64,000 bases of DNA from a bacterium (GCA_965261595.1 CBDHDG010000007.1:224001-288000); one strand, 5' to 3'. Positions 1,525 through 13,029 are shown, numbered from the stretch's first letter. Numbers and translations: made by a program. The notes: generated from the sequence alone by a model not told the origin.

Positions 1525-2973
1525 GTGTCCGGACCGGAGAATGATGTGACGACAAATCGAGAAGGACTTCCGAAAGGGGAGCCGGAGCTTTCCTGGGTCG
1601 ATTCTCATTGTCATCTGGAAGACGCCCAATTTGACGATGATCGGCCGGGGGTTCTGGAGCGCGCGAGACAAGCGGGCGTCCGATTCATGATGACCCTGGG
1701 CTCCGACATTCTCACCAGCAGGAAGGCCGTCGAACTTGCCGAGTCGCTGGATCCCGTTTTCGCGGGGATCGGCATCCATCCCCATGAAGCCAAGAAGGCG
1801 GGCCGGCGGACTTTCTCAACCCTCACGAAGCTGGCCGGAAAACCGAAGGTGGTGGCCATCGGCGAGGTGGGGCTGGATTATTACCGGACACATTCTCCGC
1901 CCGAGCAGCAAAGAGAGGTGCTCAAAAACCAGATCCGCATCGCCAAGAAGGTGAACCGGCCGTTGGTCCTGCATGAACGCGAAGCCCATGAGGATCTCAT
2001 CCAGATTCTTCGGGAAGAGAACGCCTGGGAAGCCCGTGGGGTGATTCATTGCTTCACCGGAGGCCCGCGCGAGGTTGAGGATTATCTGGACCTGGACTTC
2101 TACTTTTCCCTGGCCGGTCCGGTCACGTTCGCCAAGTCCACCGAGCTTCAGGAGACCGTTCGGGAGATCCCTTTGGAACGCCTTCTGATCGAGACCGACG
2201 CCCCCTACCTCACTCCCGCGCCCTTTCGAGGGCAAAGACCGAATGAACCGGCGATGGTCGTTCACGTCGGGGAGAAAATCGCCGAGTTGTTGGGCGTGCC
2301 AACTGAGGACCTGGCCAGGATCACCAGCTACAACGCACATGCGCTTTTCGGCATCCCGTCGGTGAACCCGGTTCCCCAAATGGTGTACAAGATTCACGGC
2401 GCTCTGCACCTGAATCTGACTTACACCTGCACCAACAATTGCTTCTACTGCCCGCGCTTTTCATCCGACTACCATTTCGGACACAACTTGAAGCTGGACA
2501 GGGACCCGGATCCGGATGAAATCTGGGAAGCGCTCAAGGCTTTCGGCGATATCCGGCAACAGGTGACGTTCAGCGGTTATGGAGAGCCTTTGGTGCGGCT
2601 GGACGTCCTGAAGGAGATTGCGGGCAGAATCAAAAAAGCGGGGGGAACGGTTCGGGTGCTGACCAATGGCCAGGGGAACCTGATCCATGGCCGAAATGTC
2701 CTGCCCGAGCTTCAGGGTTTGGTCGATCAACTCCGGATCTCACTCCACGCCGGGTCGGCGGAGAACTACATGAAGGTGGCGGCGCCCGCGTCGGGCGATG
2801 AAACCTTCGAGAGCGTCCTGTGGTTTATCCGAGAATCGAAGAACTTCGTACCGGATGTCTCGGTGATCATTCCCGACAAGCCGCTGATGTGGGATGTAGA
2901 TAAGCTGGAGAAGATGGTCACGGATGATCTGGGCGTGAAAGTCGTCCGGCGCAAGTTCGCGGTTTATGCCTGA
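1525..2973 (+). CDS. TatD-family nuclease fused to a C-terminal radical SAM domain
   Basis: TatD motifs DSHCH, GEVGLDY, HCF and ETDAPYL, followed by CxxxCxxC (CTNNCFYC) and FSGYGEP. Exact start uncertain. Confidence 0.92.
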   Translation: MSGPENDVTTNREGLPKGEPELSWVDSHCHLEDAQFDDDRPGVLERARQAGVRFMMTLGSDILTSRKAVELAESLDPVFAGIGIHPHEAKKAGRRTFSTLTKLAGKPKVVAIGEVGLDYYRTHSPPEQQREVLKNQIRIAKKVNRPLVLHEREAHEDLIQILREENAWEARGVIHCFTGGPREVEDYLDLDFYFSLAGPVTFAKSTELQETVREIPLERLLIETDAPYLTPAPFRGQRPNEPAMVVHVGEKIAELLGVPTEDLARITSYNAHALFGIPSVNPVPQMVYKIHGALHLNLTYTCTNNCFYCPRFSSDYHFGHNLKLDRDPDPDEIWEALKAFGDIRQQVTFSGYGEPLVRLDVLKEIAGRIKKAGGTVRVLTNGQGNLIHGRNVLPELQGLVDQLRISLHAGSAENYMKVAAPASGDETFESVLWFIRESKNFVPDVSVIIPDKPLMWDVDKLEKMVTDDLGVKVVRRKFAVYA

Positions 2974-3023
2974 GGCCCTCCGCTGATTGGAGGGTCGGCC
3001 GGTCCGGAGAGAAGAGGCCCGCG

Positions 3024-3842
3024 CTACCCCTCCTGCGCGGGCTCTTCGATGCGGACGCGCTCGATCGTCAAGGCCTTGCCCGAAGCGCTATCGACCGTCA
3101 AGAAGACGGCGTTGAGCTGAGCCGGTCCGGAGGCGGGTTCAAACCGCTTCGGAAGTCCGGTCAGAAATCGTTCGATCACTGGCTCCCGCCTTACGCCGAT
3201 GACAGAGACCCAGGGCCCTGTCATTCCCACGTCCGAGAGGTAAGCCGTTCCGCCGGGAAGGATCCGCTCGTCAGCGGTCTGGACATGGGTATGGGTCCCC
3301 AGGACCGCCGACACCTGGCCGTCCAAAAACCACCCCATCGCAATTTTTTCCGAAGTGGCTTCCGCATGCATATCCACAAGGATGACCGACGTCTCCCGGC
3401 GGAGTTTATTCAGGTGTTCCGAAGCGATGCGAAACGGACAGTCCAGACTGAAGGGGATGAACACACGGCCCATCAGGTTCAAAACACCGACCCGAACCCG
3501 GCTCGACGTTTCAAAGATTTCAGCGCCTCGCCCGGGGGCCCCTGACGGATAATTGGCCGGACGCAGGATGCGGGGCTCATGGGGGATGAGGTCAAAGATC
3601 TCCCGCTTATTCCAGATGTGGTTTCCTGAAGTCAGAACGTGGACGCCGAGGCCGAAAAACTCCTCCGCCACTTCCGCGGTCAACCCCAACCCCCCGGCGG
3701 CGTTCTCCGCGTTGACCACGCAGAAGTCCACTTGGAAATCCGTCAGGAGGCCCGAAAGGCGCTCTTTCAGGATTCGGCGCCCCGGTTTCCCGACGACGTC
3801 CGAGACGAACAATATCCTTACGATTTGTGGCGTTTCGGTCAA
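3024..3842 (-). CDS. ymdB: YmdB/TIGR00282-family metallophosphoesterase
   Basis: DVVGKPGR, NAENAAGG, GNH, DMHAEATSEK and GTHTHVQTADE motifs; directly downstream of rny. Confidence 0.93.
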   Translation of the reverse strand: MTETPQIVRILFVSDVVGKPGRRILKERLSGLLTDFQVDFCVVNAENAAGGLGLTAEVAEEFFGLGVHVLTSGNHIWNKREIFDLIPHEPRILRPANYPSGAPGRGAEIFETSSRVRVGVLNLMGRVFIPFSLDCPFRIASEHLNKLRRETSVILVDMHAEATSEKIAMGWFLDGQVSAVLGTHTHVQTADERILPGGTAYLSDVGMTGPWVSVIGVRREPVIERFLTGLPKRFEPASGPAQLNAVFLTVDSASGKALTIERVRIEEPAQEG

Positions 3843-3852
3843 TCGGAACGCC

Positions 3853-5436
3853 TCATTGGGCGACTTCCTCCGAACGGGTCTCGCGAATCACCGTCACCTT
3901 GATCTCGCCGGGATAGGTGAGCTCTTCCTCGATCCGACGTGCGATGTCTTTGGCCAGAAACACTGCCTCGGATTCGTTCACGTTGGTCGGTTGGACAATG
4001 ACCCGGATCTCCCGGCCCGCCTGGATGGCGTAAGACTTCTCCACGCCCTGAAAAGAGTCGCCGATTTTCTCAAGCTGCTGGAGCCGCTTGATATGGGATT
4101 CCAGCGTCTCCCGCCGGGCCCCCGGACGCGCGGCGGACAGCGAGTCGGCCGCGCAAACGGCCATCGACTCGATGCTGTTGGGTTCTTCTTCTTCGTGATG
4201 GGCCGCGATGGCGTTGAGGACGACTGGCGGTTCGCGGTATCGGCGAGCCACATCGATGCCGATCTGGATGTGGGAGCCTTCCATTTCGTGGTCGAGGGCC
4301 TTGCCGATGTCGTGAAGCAAGCCGGCCCGCTTGGCCAGCTTCACGTCACCCCCCAATTCCGCGGCCACGAGACCGCTCAGGTGAGCCACCTCCTTGGAGT
4401 GCATCAGTACGTTTTGGCTGTAACTCGTGCGATAGTTCAGTCTTCCGAGCAGACGGAGGATTTCGGGATGGATTCCGTCCACCCCGACCTCGATGGCCGC
4501 CTCCGCTCCGATCTCCCGGACGTTCTTCTCCATATCGCTCTTGACCTTGGCCACGACATCTTCGATGCGCCGCGGGTGGATGCGGCCGTCTGAGACCAGG
4601 CGCTCCAGCGCCCTGCGGGCGATCTCCCGCTTGATGGGATCAAATCCCGAGATGATCACCGCTTCCGGGGTGTCGTCGATGATGAGGTCCACGCCGGTCG
4701 CCATCTCCATCGCCCGGATGTTCCGCCCCTCGCGGCCGATAATCCGCCCCTTCATCTCATCGTTGGGCAGGCTAACGACGGACAGGGTGTTTTCCGCTAC
4801 GTGGTCCGCCGCGTATCGCTGAATCGCGATGGCGATGATTCGATTGGCTTCCCGCTCGGCCTGTTCCCGCGCTTCCTCCTCAATCTTGCGCACCAGGTTC
4901 GCGCTGTCGTGCCGGGCCTCCTCCACGACCTGATCCATGATCACCTTCTTGGCTTCCGCCGCCGTTAACCCCGATACGCGCTCGAGGGCCCGGGTTCGCT
5001 CTTGAAGAACGCGATCGGTTTCTTTTCTCAGCTCCTCGAGTTTGTCCTCCCGCTCGGTGAGAAGGAGACCCTTCTTTTCAAAATTCCGCTCTTTCGTCTC
5101 CGCCGCTTCCAGCTTCTTTTCCAGGTTCCCCTCCCGTTGGAGACTGCGGCGTTCCTGCGTTTGAAGCTCCTGTCTCCTCTCCTTGATTTCCTGATCCAAT
5201 TCCCGGCTGACGCGCAGGGTTTCTTCCTTGGCCTCTAATTCGGCTTGACGGCGAATGGTCTCCGCCTCCCGCTTGGCCTCGGCCTGAAGCTTATCAGCCT
5301 CTTCCTGGGCCTGCTGGATCTTGGACCGGACTGAAACCCGGCGCAGCAAAAATCCAACCACGCCCCCCAACACAATGAGCAACGCGCCCAGCGCCCAACC
5401 CTCCGGATTCATCCAGTTGGCCATGAGCTCAGACAC
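3853..5436 (-). CDS. rny: Ribonuclease Y
   Basis: N-terminal TM helix, coiled coil, KH domain ([12 protein letters not shown]) and HD domain (LLHDIGK). Confidence 0.97.
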
Positions 5437-9845: not shown

Positions 9846-10856
9846 TCAGAACTGGGAAAGAAATCGGACATCGTTTTCAAAGAATAGGCGGATGTCATCG
9901 ATTCCGTATTTGAGCATGGCCACGCGCTCCACGCCGAGGCCGAACGCGAATCCCGTCACCTCCTCGGGGTCGTAGCCGACGAATCCATAAACCGCGGGGT
10001 CCACCATTCCGGCGCCGAGGATCTCCAGCCATCCAGTCCTTCTACAAACCCGGCAGCCCCGCCCTTGGCAGATGACGCACTGGATGTCCACCTCCGCGCT
10101 GGGTTCGGTAAAGGGGAAAAAGCTTGGGCGGAAGCGGACGCCCACATCGGGCCCGAACATCTCGTGCACAAAAATGGACAGCGTGCCGCGCAGATCCGCG
10201 AACGTCACGTCCCGGTCGACCAGGAGCCCTTCCACCTGGTGAAACATGGGGGCATGAGACACGTCCGCGTCACAGCGGTACACCTTGCCGGGAGCGACAA
10301 TCTGGACCGGAGGCTCCTGCTTTTCCATCACCCGGATCTGGACCGGCGAGGTGTGGGTCCGCATGAGCGTTTTTTCCGTGAGATAGAAGGTGTCGTGCAT
10401 GTCCCGGGCCGGATGATCCGGCGGGATGTTGAGGGCCTCGAAATTATAATAATCGAGCTCGACCTCGGGTCCCTCGGCAATCCCAAACCCCAGACCTTGG
10501 AAGATTCTCAGGACCTCTCCCGTCACCTGGGTGACCGGATGTATGCGCCCGGGGGGTTGGCCTCGGCCGGGAAGGGTGACGTCGAAGGAGGGCGCGGCTT
10601 TCCGTAACTCGGCGTGGCGTAGGGCTTCGAGCCGGCGCTCGAAAACGCCCTCGATTTCGGCCTCCACGGCGTGGACCGCCTTCCCGAATGTTGGGCGGTC
10701 CTCGGGGGGGAGCTTCCCCATACGCTTGAGTTGTTGGGTCAGGATGCCCTTGCGGCCCAGATATCGGGTCTTGACGGTTTGCAGATCTTCTTCCGAGTCG
10801 GCGGCTTCAGCCTCTTCGGCCACCAAGCGCGGGAGGTCTTCGAGGTCGTCACTCAT
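9846..10856 (-). CDS. pheS: Phenylalanine--tRNA ligase alpha subunit
   Basis: HPARDMHDTFY, RTHTSPVQ, FPFTEPS and GFAFGLGVER motifs. Confidence 0.97.
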   Translation of the reverse strand: MSDDLEDLPRLVAEEAEAADSEEDLQTVKTRYLGRKGILTQQLKRMGKLPPEDRPTFGKAVHAVEAEIEGVFERRLEALRHAELRKAAPSFDVTLPGRGQPPGRIHPVTQVTGEVLRIFQGLGFGIAEGPEVELDYYNFEALNIPPDHPARDMHDTFYLTEKTLMRTHTSPVQIRVMEKQEPPVQIVAPGKVYRCDADVSHAPMFHQVEGLLVDRDVTFADLRGTLSIFVHEMFGPDVGVRFRPSFFPFTEPSAEVDIQCVICQGRGCRVCRRTGWLEILGAGMVDPAVYGFVGYDPEEVTGFAFGLGVERVAMLKYGIDDIRLFFENDVRFLSQF

Positions 10857-10872
10857 CGAGGCCCATTTCAAT

Positions 10873-10957
10873 CGTATTTATATACTTGACACAGACGACC
10901 ACAACATGTAGGTCGCGCCCGCGTCTCGGCTGACCACAAGATGTAGGGGCATGCTTC
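10873..10957 (+). repeat. Left terminal inverted repeat of the cassette
   Basis: CGTATTTATATACTTGACACAGACGACCACAACATGTAGG...CCACAAGATGTAGGGGCATGCTTC; reverse complement of 11695-11779. Confidence 0.93.
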
Positions 10958-11002
10958 CATCGATCCGTTTCCAGAAGATGCGCTCTATCAGATCGTTCGG
11001 TT

Positions 11003-11617
11003 TCATTGATCGATAAAATCCACGCGCTGAATATCGCCCTTTTCATTGAAGTGTAAAAACAACTTTTTGTTTATATGCAATGTGTTGTTGGTTTTTCCTT
11101 TTCTTCCGTACTTAAACTCAAATTCAAGACCGCCCTCAAAAACGCCGCTTCTCTTCTGCTCTATAGGTATGTAGTGATCGTCAAACCACCCCATCCCTCC
11201 TGCAGGGATGGTATAGCTATTCTTGGCATATGGCTCTTTTGTCGGGTACAACTTATCAAATGTTGAGACGACATTTACAACCTCAAATGTCACCGGGAAA
11301 AGAGCTTTGTTGTTAAACGTAGCACCAATCCGCAGTGATTTTACTACACCAGCTTTGTCGATTATTCTGTCAGTTCTCACACTATGAAAGTTAAGCATAT
11401 CCGCAACTCTATTACGATACCGCCATTCGCTGAATCGCAACAATCCCATAGAGGAAACTGAAAACAGAATGACCGCTCCAACATATAGGTTGAACAACTG
11501 GATATGTTGCGCAAAACCGATCATGACGCCAGCCGCCGTGACCGCAATGGGCCATATCCAGCTCCGCAGTAATTCACCCGCCAAAAAGAGGGCGACTTTA
11601 CGAAGCCAATTGAGCAT
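11003..11617 (-). CDS. Hypothetical membrane-anchored protein (two N-terminal hydrophobic segments plus beta-rich soluble domain); cassette passenger
   Basis: 204-aa ORF filling the cassette interior, AT-rich, with its own promoter-like sequence. Confidence 0.8.
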   Translation of the reverse strand: MLNWLRKVALFLAGELLRSWIWPIAVTAAGVMIGFAQHIQLFNLYVGAVILFSVSSMGLLRFSEWRYRNRVADMLNFHSVRTDRIIDKAGVVKSLRIGATFNNKALFPVTFEVVNVVSTFDKLYPTKEPYAKNSYTIPAGGMGWFDDHYIPIEQKRSGVFEGGLEFEFKYGRKGKTNNTLHINKKLFLHFNEKGDIQRVDFIDQ

Positions 11618-11626
11618 GATTCAGTC

Positions 11627-11655
11627 ATTGTATGATCCCTCTTCGGTTGAGTCAA
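11627..11655 (-). promoter_or_regulatory. Near-consensus sigma70 promoter of the passenger gene
   Basis: Minus strand TTGACT-17 nt-TACAAT, ending 9 nt before the ATG at 11617. Confidence 0.7.
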
Positions 11656-11694
11656 GCGCATAATTGCGAATCCAACTCCACCATGACTTGAGTT

Positions 11695-11779
11695 GAAGCA
11701 TGCCCCTACATCTTGTGGTCAGCCGAGACGCGGGGACGATCTACATGTTGTGGTCGTCTGCGTCAAGTACATAATTCCG
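11695..11779 (-). repeat. Right terminal inverted repeat of the cassette
   Basis: Reads CGGAATTATGTACTTGACGCAGACGACCACAACATGTAGA... inward on the minus strand. Confidence 0.93.
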
Positions 11780-11895
11780 ATTTCAATCCCGCAAAGCCCC
11801 TTCCGGGGCGGACAAGACCGCATCCGGCGACCGGGGCGCGACCCCCCCCGTCGGCCGGCGCGCCTTCCTGGCGGAAGGGCTTTGGCTGGTTTCAA

Positions 11896-12249
11896 TTAGG
11901 CGTGCTCTTTGGCGAGGGCCGCCAGTTTGGCAAAAGCCTCGGCGTCATTGACGGCCAAGTCGGCGAGGACCTTACGGTCCAACGTCACCTCCGCTTGGCC
12001 GAGTCCATGAATCAACCGGCTGTATGAAAGCCCGTGTTCGCGTGAAGCCGCGTTGATGCGGGTGATCCATAACCGGCGGAATTCCCGCTTTCGAAGACGG
12101 CGGTGCCGGTATGCGTATGCCAGACCCCGCTCCACCGTTTCACGGGCGATACGGTAGTTATTCTTTCGCCGCCCCCAGTAGCCACTGGCCTGTTTGAGGA
12201 TTTTCTTGTGCCTGCGCCTGCTGGCGGGCGAATGTGTTGCCCTCGGCAT
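11896..12249 (-). CDS. rplT: 50S ribosomal protein L20
   Basis: GYWGRR...[24 protein letters not shown] motif. Confidence 0.98.
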
Positions 12250-12259
12250 GATTTGGCCC

Positions 12260-12457
12260 CTATTTTTTTCCGAGGAGGATCCGTATCCGTTTAGCGTCGC
12301 CCGGCGCGGCCAAGCTGGATTTCCTCAAGGAACGTTTTCGCTTCCTCGTTTTGTGGGTCAAGAGATGGCTCTTGTGGGCGCTGTCCCGGCGGACCTTGCC
12401 CTTTGCAGTGAGCCGAAAGCGCTTGGCCGCGCCTCGATTCGTCTTCATTTTCGGCAT
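12260..12457 (-). CDS. rpmI: 50S ribosomal protein L35
   Basis: [15 protein letters not shown]-terminus. Confidence 0.98.
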
Positions 12458-12471
12458 CGGAGCGGACTCCC

Positions 12472-13029
12472 TTATTGTGATTGGGTCTTCGTGGAGCTCG
12501 GGATGAGAATCATCGACATGTTCCGCCCTTCCTGAATCGGCTGCTGCTCCACCTTGGCCACGTCTTCGAGTTCATCGATCATTCGCGTCATGAGGCGCAA
12601 CCCCAAATGCCGGTGCGCCATCTCCCGGCCCCGGAACATGACGGTGACTTTGACCTTGTTTCCCTCGCCCAAAAACCGCCGGATGTGGCGCCCCTTGAAT
12701 TGAAAATCGTGTTCCTCCGTTTTCGGGCGCATTTTGACTTCCTTGACGTGAATGACCTTCTGCCGCTTTTTGGCATCATGCGTGCGCTTGCTTTGCTGAT
12801 ATTTAAAGCGGCCGTAATCCATGATCCGGCAAACGGGCGGTTCACTGTTCGGGGCCACTTCCACCAAATCGAGATCCCGGTCCTCCGCAGCGATCAAGGC
12901 ATTCTCGATGGGCAAGATACCGAGCTGTTCACCATCGCTGTCCACCACGCGGACTTCCCTCACACGGATGTCCCGGTTGATGCGCTGAGAAGGCTTGGGT
13001 GTGCTCCTGTCAAAATCCCGTCTTACTAT
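12472..13029 (-). CDS. infC: Translation initiation factor IF-3, probable non-canonical ATA start
   Basis: IF-3 motifs DLVEVAPN and [10 protein letters not shown]. Frame extends past the GTG at 12963 through the conserved RINRDI to an ATA at 13029, 8 nt after GAGGGAG. Confidence 0.93.

Follow-up and report, generated by a model that had tools for sequence, protein, structure and literature searches.

Mobile insertion cassettes (MICs), of which MIC231 of the Bacillus cereus group is an example, share terminal inverted repeats derived from an insertion sequence (IS), flanking direct repeats, the lack of a transposase gene, one or more genes unrelated to transposition, and presumed mobilization in trans. 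The same designation is given to the qnrD and qnrS2 "mic" elements in two reports (PMC3913671, PMC5444012), and MITEPye1 is presented as a miniature inverted-repeat transposable element (MITE) in a third (PMC11578231). Members of the IS1595 family, according to PMC8101967, usually generate 8-bp duplications, encode a zinc finger DDE transposase, and fall into seven subgroups; IS that carry passenger genes ("tIS," or "transporter IS," e.g., ISNha5) are described in a section of PMC11891212 that cites Siguier 2009. A full-text literature search returned neither an IS1595-derived MIC nor a paper on the cargo protein family considered below, the primary IS1595 paper (Siguier et al. 2009) lying outside the literature searched. 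Here we describe a 907-bp element located at positions 10873 to 11779 of a 64,000-nucleotide stretch of bacterial DNA (the window; positions are those of the window unless another locus is named), between the genes rplT and pheS. The window corresponds to C7:224001-288000 of a genome, G000, of 6.17 Mb and 63% GC in seven contigs. We consider it highly probable (roughly 0.88) that this element is a nonautonomous MIC, which would derive from passenger-carrying IS1595 elements and be mobilized in trans.

An inverted-repeat search covering 2.6 kb returned arms at 10865-10957 and 11695-11787 (93 nt, 90% complementary), and the three remaining inverted pairs in the same 2.6 kb were of only 13 to 15 nt. 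The call reached into the flanking 8-mer ATTTCAAT because this sequence is self-complementary at six of its eight positions; the strict arms, 10873-10957 and 11695-11779, pair at 78 of 85 positions, leaving 7 mismatches. Exactly matching copies of ATTTCAAT adjoin the element on the left (10865-10872) and on the right (11780-11787), and the exact direct repeat at this insert is 9 nt long (ATTTCAATC), since the first base of the element, C, is also the base that follows the right-hand copy. The left end (plus strand) begins with an 18-nt terminus, CGTATTTATATACTTGAC, followed by two direct copies of GACCACAA[C/G]ATGTAGG at 10897-10912 and 10932-10947. The right end (minus strand) has the same architecture and, read from the outside in, starts with CGGAATTATGTACTTGAC; GACCACAACATGTAGG and GACCACAAGATGTAGG are present in each end, 35 nt apart. 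The interior has a GC content of 0.40 to 0.45, compared with 0.57 to 0.68 in the flanks, and holds a single open reading frame (ORF), the 204-amino-acid (aa) cargo gene (11003-11617, minus strand). No transposase was found inside the element by ORF calls, by Pfam and NCBIfam searches, or by tblastn with two IS1595 transposases. A first-pass annotation made from the sequence alone had described 85-bp inverted repeats with seven mismatches, an exact 8-bp duplication at both ends, one AT-rich 204-aa gene and no transposase, and a site between rplT and pheS separated from the pheS ATG by 8 nt; all of this was confirmed, down to every coordinate, and the 8 nt are those at 10857-10864.

BLAST searches of the genome identified 11 full-length copies of the cassette on contigs C3, C4, C6, and C7, with 99.3 to 100% identity and variation at just 3 of 908 alignment columns. 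Perfect 8-bp duplications flank six of the 11 copies, at AT-rich sites; the duplicated 8-mers are TTTTTTTC, ATTTTTAA, AAAAAAAT, AAATGATT, and, at two separate loci, ATTTCAAT. The expectation that the genome would hold further copies with different duplications, of the length made by IS1595 elements, was thereby borne out. The window copy and the copy 15 kb upstream (G000:C7:219739-220667) share a 13-mer site, CCATTTCAATCCC, at window positions 10862-10874 and 11777-11790. Uninterrupted, this 13-mer has one further occurrence in the 6.17 Mb, and ATTTCAAT has 126 occurrences on both strands; several further ends adjoin ..TTCAAT. Such recurrent sites suggest an insertion preference beyond AT-richness.

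The site upstream of pheS exists in both filled and empty forms. In a congener (G001, 3.7 Mb compared with 6.17 Mb for G000), both flanks are matched at 96% identity by two pieces that overlap by 10 nt, and the empty site carries a single ATTTCAAAT, reading ...CGAGGCCCATTTCAAATCTGCAAAG... across the joint. Contigs of public sequencing runs were also compared over 10500-12200, with 31 nt as the junction criterion. In a 2,878-bp contig of run X8, position 10864 is followed immediately by 11780, so that 915 nt are absent, and 8 letters at the joint are ambiguous; ATTTCAAT is present as a single copy both here and in G001. The empty joint is also present in an 87-bp contig of run X1, the shorter side there being only 22 nt, and another X1 contig, of 140 bp (11705-11844), spans the right junction in its filled form, with 75 nt on one side and 65 nt on the other. 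Contigs of run X3 enter the ends from the flanks by 23 and 19 nt, which is below the 31-nt criterion. Both forms were thus found in public runs of separate studies, and the empty site in relatives that the first-pass annotation had called for was found in the congener and in the X8 contig. Because empty sites occur in G001 and in the X8 and X1 contigs, together with a contig across a filled junction, the insertion upstream of pheS is real, recent, and polymorphic. The majority form of the cassette also differs among populations: an extra A at site 11167, which shifts the cargo reading frame, is present in the interior contig of X3 and absent from those of X1 and X8, and position 11600 is G in the interior contigs of all three runs and A in the window. 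Contig depths in the interior versus the flanks were 31.1 versus 3.3 to 4.7 (X3), 25.3 versus 21 to 22 (X1), and 15.5 versus 8.1 (X8); these ratios hint that copy number differs between populations, depth not being copy number and not being relied on here.

Beyond the 11 copies, 72 nt of the cassette end recur with 94 to 96% identity at four additional loci. One of these, C6:356811-356882, adjoins an ORF (C6:355741-356760) that matches DDE_Tnp_IS1595 (1.2e-39), Zn_ribbon_IS1595 (2.8e-09), and NF033547 (1.4e-60). The encoded transposase is full length compared with 311-aa homologues, to which it is up to 94% identical; the nearest of these are named in their sources only as "IS1595 family transposase." The ORF belongs to a 4.1-kb IS1595-family element with passengers (C6:352755-356887; part of it lies in L025:1-1577), the other ORFs of which encode 213 and 106 aa (neither with a Pfam match) and 539 aa (GmrSD_N plus HNH, defense-like). 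A second, 99.7% identical copy of the transposase, at C5:40374-41375, lies in a disrupted element whose ends are not recognizable. An IS1595 transposase between ends related to those of the cassette had been looked for, and the C6 element, with an end 96% identical over 72 nt, supplies it. This partner has both the DDE_Tnp_IS1595 domain and the Zn ribbon usual in the family, whereas the window element, because it has no transposase gene, is a derivative of the family and not itself an IS. In other respects the cassette resembles passenger-carrying IS1595 elements such as ISNha5: 8-bp duplications (six of 11 copies, and also the IS of locus L043 and the element at C6:703409-705509, both described below), ends that start with CGG/CGn..TTAT, a partner that combines a Zn-ribbon DDE transposase with passengers including the GmrSD_N/HNH protein, and a cargo family that is itself a passenger of related elements.

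Comparison of the ends indicated how the long terminal repeat arose. BLAST aligns the transposase-proximal end of the C6 element with both cassette ends at 96% identity over 72 nt, and without gaps it matches the left cassette end at 75 of 85 positions and the other end at 73 of 85. The two ends of the 4.1-kb element itself agree at 44 of 85 ungapped positions and share a terminal 18 nt, CGnnnTTATATACTTGAC, and two CCAC...ATGTAG motifs of about 13 nt. Judged by these alignments, both cassette ends are copies of the same transposase-proximal parental end. The cassette has an 85-nt repeat because it carries one parental end twice, and the repeat therefore gives no evidence that the transposase needs unusually long ends. 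The earlier suggestion of unusually long ends held as far as the 85-nt repeat is real, and failed in that the repeat reflects a duplicated end of a parent whose own ends match at 44 of 85. A terminal CGnnnTTAT[A/G]TACTTGAC together with a CCAC..ATGTA motif is common to several end types of this genome, and a terminal CGnnnTTAT..CTTGAC is found also in the IS of loci L043, L046, and L047. The first-pass annotation had matched the right end to CGGnnTT, the terminus of the ISNha5 group; the ISNwi1 consensus, ggnnatTAT, fits the cassette ends at least as well.

The same end types also border other DNA. A 1.2-kb transposase-less derivative of the 4.1-kb parent (L023:1496-2700; C7:1038945-1040149) keeps only the 213- and 106-aa ORFs between both parental end types; it has no matching duplication, and its right flank, AGAATTTC, recurs beside a truncated copy at C6:1190943. 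At L026:1501-1572 (C7:793271-793342), a solo end of 72 nt with 94% identity directly adjoins a gene for a 232-aa protein with a staphylococcal nuclease domain, whose reading frame enters the end and stops there.

Unlike its ends, the interior of the cassette aligns with a different IS1595 element. Window positions 11000-11663 are 88.9% identical over 664 nt to positions 2955-3618 of locus L043, from a gammaproteobacterial metagenome-assembled genome, in which an 83% identical homologue of the cargo is convergent with a 294-aa IS1595 transposase (NF033547, 1e-62). That IS is 1,757 bp long, with 24-nt inverted repeats at 2950-2973 and 4683-4706 and an 8-bp duplication, TAAGATAC. The match spans the IS end, the promoter region, and the cargo gene to its stop codon. 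Because the IS end is included, GCAATTATGCGCTTGACTCAACC at 11645-11667 (minus strand), which aligns with the 24-nt repeat GGTACTTATGCCCTTGACTCAACC of the L043 IS, is read as the relic inner end of a second IS1595-type element, of the type that naturally carries the cargo gene. A promoter-like TTGACT-17-TACAAT, overlapping it at 11627-11655 (minus strand), agrees with the consensus at 10 of 12 positions by pattern match only and faces the cargo gene and then pheS. On the other side of the gene, the spacer that separates the stop codon of the ORF from the left end (10954-10999, plus strand) is 87% identical over 46 nt to positions 3489-3533 of locus L070, from a member of the same family (G006), where the similar segment lies between a terminal repeat (3371-3408) and the start of the transposase (3596) of an IS1595 element. 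This spacer is probably a leftover after loss of the transposase gene. In our reading the interior is the remnant of a distinct IS1595 element of about 1.76 kb with the layout [end - cargo gene -> <- transposase - end], which has kept its inner end, promoter, and cargo gene and lost its transposase gene, a short leader-like piece persisting beside the other outer end.

The family to which the cargo belongs is associated with such elements elsewhere. A word-indexed search of 5.8 billion sequences returned 9 clusters for the 204-aa protein, including one 204-aa protein that is 83% identical, and an exhaustive search of 50% representatives returned 299 family clusters at E values of 1e-3 or below, mostly of about 200 to 220 aa. 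Besides L043, loci L044, L046, and L047 carry the family inside IS1595 elements bounded by terminal repeats, so that it lies beside the transposase in four of the five other contexts examined. In the fifth, L074 (G618), the gene is solitary: terminal repeats are absent, and about 4 kb around it contain no transposase. Wherever the family sits in an IS, a canonical IS1595 transposase is also there. In L044 (1-3271) the element has perfect 25-nt repeats and holds a gene of the cargo family, a 203-aa ORF without a family match, a DNA adenine methyltransferase-like gene, and the transposase; it may represent a restriction-modification pair riding an IS. The family is sparsely distributed, occurring in 3 of 51 genomes of the window's phylum and, for G051, in 1 of 400 genomes of its class and 2 of 401 of its phylum. 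Variable cargo had been suggested in the first-pass annotation; the 1.2-kb derivative and the 4.1-kb parent do show other cargo between the same end types, and the cargo of the cassette itself is not arbitrary: elements of a related IS1595 clade usually have it as their passenger.

The cargo gene is broken in most copies. Ten of the 11 share a 1-bp insertion, the extra A of TATAGG(A)TATG, which leaves an ORF of 160 aa, and within this genome the intact 204-aa frame is found only in the window copy. Programmed frameshifting in the 10 broken copies was considered and rejected, as the sequence around the extra A is not a homopolymer and is not known to act as a slippery motif. Since the frameshifted form is the one that multiplied, the cargo is not needed for movement; and since 10 of 11 copies carry it frameshifted, the earlier description of a gene-delivery cassette is doubtful. 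Between the cargo gene and its L043 counterpart dN/dS is 0.47 at a dS of 0.19, indicating moderate constraint. An AlphaFold2 model built from 86 sequences (pLDDT 94.7) has two long helices at residues 2-36 and 39-69 followed by an eight-strand beta-sandwich, so that the protein is predicted to be membrane anchored by an N-terminal transmembrane helical hairpin. Helix 2 is followed by a cluster of arginines (RFSEWRYRNR), which under the positive-inside rule would place the beta-sandwich in the cytoplasm. The cargo protein has no Pfam or NCBIfam match; together with three relatives, it has no PADLOC or PHROGs match; and the ESM Atlas gave only unnamed clusters (best score, 0.93). Foldseek searches of the PDB yielded generic beta-sandwich matches (the Fsx1 ectodomain, ApaG, Af_0446, a TRAP subunit, and the luminal domain of TMEM106B) at E values of about 5e-4 to 1e-3 and query-normalized TM-scores of 0.38 or less, and no functional lead.

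These properties bear on the question of whether the element could be autonomous, the 204-aa protein being a new type of transposase or otherwise required for movement. The protein is encoded by the only ORF of the element, and its family was found within IS1595 elements in four of five other contexts. Against this, the majority form of the gene is frameshifted (10 of 11 copies), the confidently modeled structure has no nuclease or recombinase fold, none of Pfam, NCBIfam, PADLOC, and PHROGs gave a match, and a canonical IS1595 transposase accompanies the family in every IS in which it occurs; we therefore regard autonomy as extremely improbable. It is a tentative idea, which we hold as rather unlikely though worth stating, that the cargo of about 205 aa is a dedicated second gene of an IS1595 clade of about 1.76 to 1.83 kb, with a role in element biology or host retention. 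In that case the clade may have the layout transposase -> <- membrane protein between CGnnATTAT..CTTGAC ends, and the role may be, for example, membrane control of transposition, exclusion, or defense, by analogy with the restriction-modification and GmrSD-type genes on sister elements; the cassette would then be an accessory gene that has come loose from its transposase and that a second IS has spread.

As to how the MIC would move, the proposed sequence of events is that both of its ends were copied from the transposase-proximal end of C6:352755-356887, that the 311-aa DDE transposase may bind, as candidate sites, the conserved 18-nt terminus together with the GACCACAAnATGTAGG motifs repeated behind it and so move the cassette in trans, and that insertion would occur into AT-rich sites with an 8-bp duplication. 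Alternatively, a cassette of the same kind could be mobilized by another IS1595 transposase, such as the 295-aa enzyme of C6:703409-705509 (gene at C6:703619-704506) or its paralogues, several of which are encoded in the genome (74 to 81% identity, at four further loci). The interior of the cassette stems from that clade, whose enzymes are nearer to the natural transposase of the cargo, and C6b-type ends share with the cassette a terminal CGTGATTATATACTTGAC and a CCACAAnATGTA motif. The apparent activity of the C6:703409-705509 element is judged from the perfect 8-bp duplication that flanks it, AAAGGAAT. Its ends, however, are only about 80% similar to those of the cassette and over only the first 40 nt or so, whereas for the C6a-type end the identity is 96% and extends over 72 nt with both subterminal motifs included, which makes mobilization by this second group improbable. 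The C6:703409-705509 element is an intact IS1595 element of 2.1 kb, and its 249-aa passenger has a weak match to DUF7946 (25.1 bits; cutoff, 27).

Several observations weigh against a MIC mobilized in trans by the partner enzyme. Mobilization in trans is what we infer from near-identical copies, filled and empty sites, and a matching transposase. The genome is rich in IS1595-type transposase genes, with 49 tblastn high-scoring segment pairs for one query on six of seven contigs, so that the partner enzyme is a candidate for the one that acts. The 4.1-kb parent has no clean 8-bp duplication, with ATTCAAT on both sides offset by 2 nt. Outside the assembly, only the right junction of the insertion is formally bridged, public-run contigs reaching just 17 to 23 nt into the element at the left junction, and one public run may be the source of the assembly itself. 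Among 30 relatives, end-like sequences were found only in G006, at 75 to 79% identity, and the exact cassette-end pattern gave 0 matches in JGI metagenome contigs; a pattern search of metagenome contigs with alignment A1 gave 76 pattern matches and 0 relatives. When copies and run contigs are taken together, the indel at 11167 and the A/G site at 11600 occur in all four combinations, so that a simple genealogy with the window copy as ancestor was rejected and the history of the cassette involves recombination or gene conversion.

Moreover, matching duplications are missing from 5 of the 11 copies. Most of the unlike flanks of these copies are found again at other ends: those of C6:1667270 and C7:905605 are swapped reciprocally, the right flank of C3:129354 is the left flank of C7:8741, and the right flank of C7:8741 recurs twice, on the left of C7:29385 and beside an end at C4:171546; only GTTTAGTT was without a counterpart at any other end. 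This pattern of exchange suggests homologous recombination among copies after insertion, which would have rearranged the chromosome, and assembly chimeras at a 908-bp repeat would also explain it. The five unmatched copies, in an assembly of seven contigs with an estimated contamination of 5.57%, could even be taken to mean that the element is a fixed, immobile relic or an artefact of assembly at a repeat. Such an origin is very improbable given copies that vary at only 3 of 908 columns, filled and empty forms in runs of separate studies, and a congener with an empty site.

The element accordingly belongs to an established kind, the MIC, and does not represent a new one: it has IS-type terminal repeats, direct repeats, no transposase, and a gene unrelated to transposition, and its ends are homologous to those of a transposase-bearing family member. 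It differs from described MICs in being derived from IS1595 rather than from IS231/IS4-type or other elements, in having two ends that copy one parental end and so form an 85-nt repeat, in an interior left over from a second IS and the passenger that such an IS usually carries, and in its 11 copies in one genome with mostly broken cargo. MITEs are likewise nonautonomous and multicopy, with direct repeats and terminal repeats that match an IS. They are small (a few hundred base pairs) and noncoding, in contrast to this cassette of 907 to 908 bp, which contains a promoter-like site and whose ORF has homologues elsewhere.

In the window, the minus-strand gene order is thrS, infC, rpmI, rplT, the element, pheS, and pheT. 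The insertion lies downstream of rplT (11896-12249, minus strand, from ORF calls) and upstream of pheS (9846-10856, minus strand, ATG at 10856), the flank of which is 96% identical to that of G001; owing to the duplication, the 16 nt that precede the pheS ATG are as they were before the insertion. Pattern scans found no terminator-like site in 10700-12400 and no outward promoter facing pheS in the left end. By eye, the rplT-pheS spacer (11788-11895) contains two GC-rich hairpins, CCTTCC..GGAAGG and GCCCC-GGAA-GGGGC followed by TTTG, which were not called by the pattern scan and might act as an attenuator or a weak terminator ahead of pheS. An Rfam search of 10600-12500 returned Hrs13 at 17.1 bits (gathering cutoff, 52; E value, 0.44), which was taken as a chance match. 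Contigs of an RNA run, X15, cover only the flanks (10562-10850 and 11789-12200) and are uninformative on transcription of the element or read-through. The insertion may be tolerated because of read-through into pheS from rplT or from the cassette promoter, and, as a more remote possibility that goes with the tentative idea of a dedicated second gene, the intact, promoter-bearing window copy may drive or buffer pheS expression.

Together, these results would provide a natural example of the birth of a cassette, in which one IS nested in or beside another, the transposase was lost, and the same parental end came to be present twice, in an element caught while it is still polymorphic in the population. 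They indicate that a very long terminal repeat need not mirror what a transposase requires. For annotation, the cassette accounts for 11 repeats and probably for several rearrangement breakpoints in this assembly. The association with IS1595 gives an unnamed protein family of 299 clusters at 50% identity its first testable functional context. Finally, for the organism, an essential gene for an aminoacyl-tRNA synthetase now has a promoter-carrying insertion 8 nt from its start.

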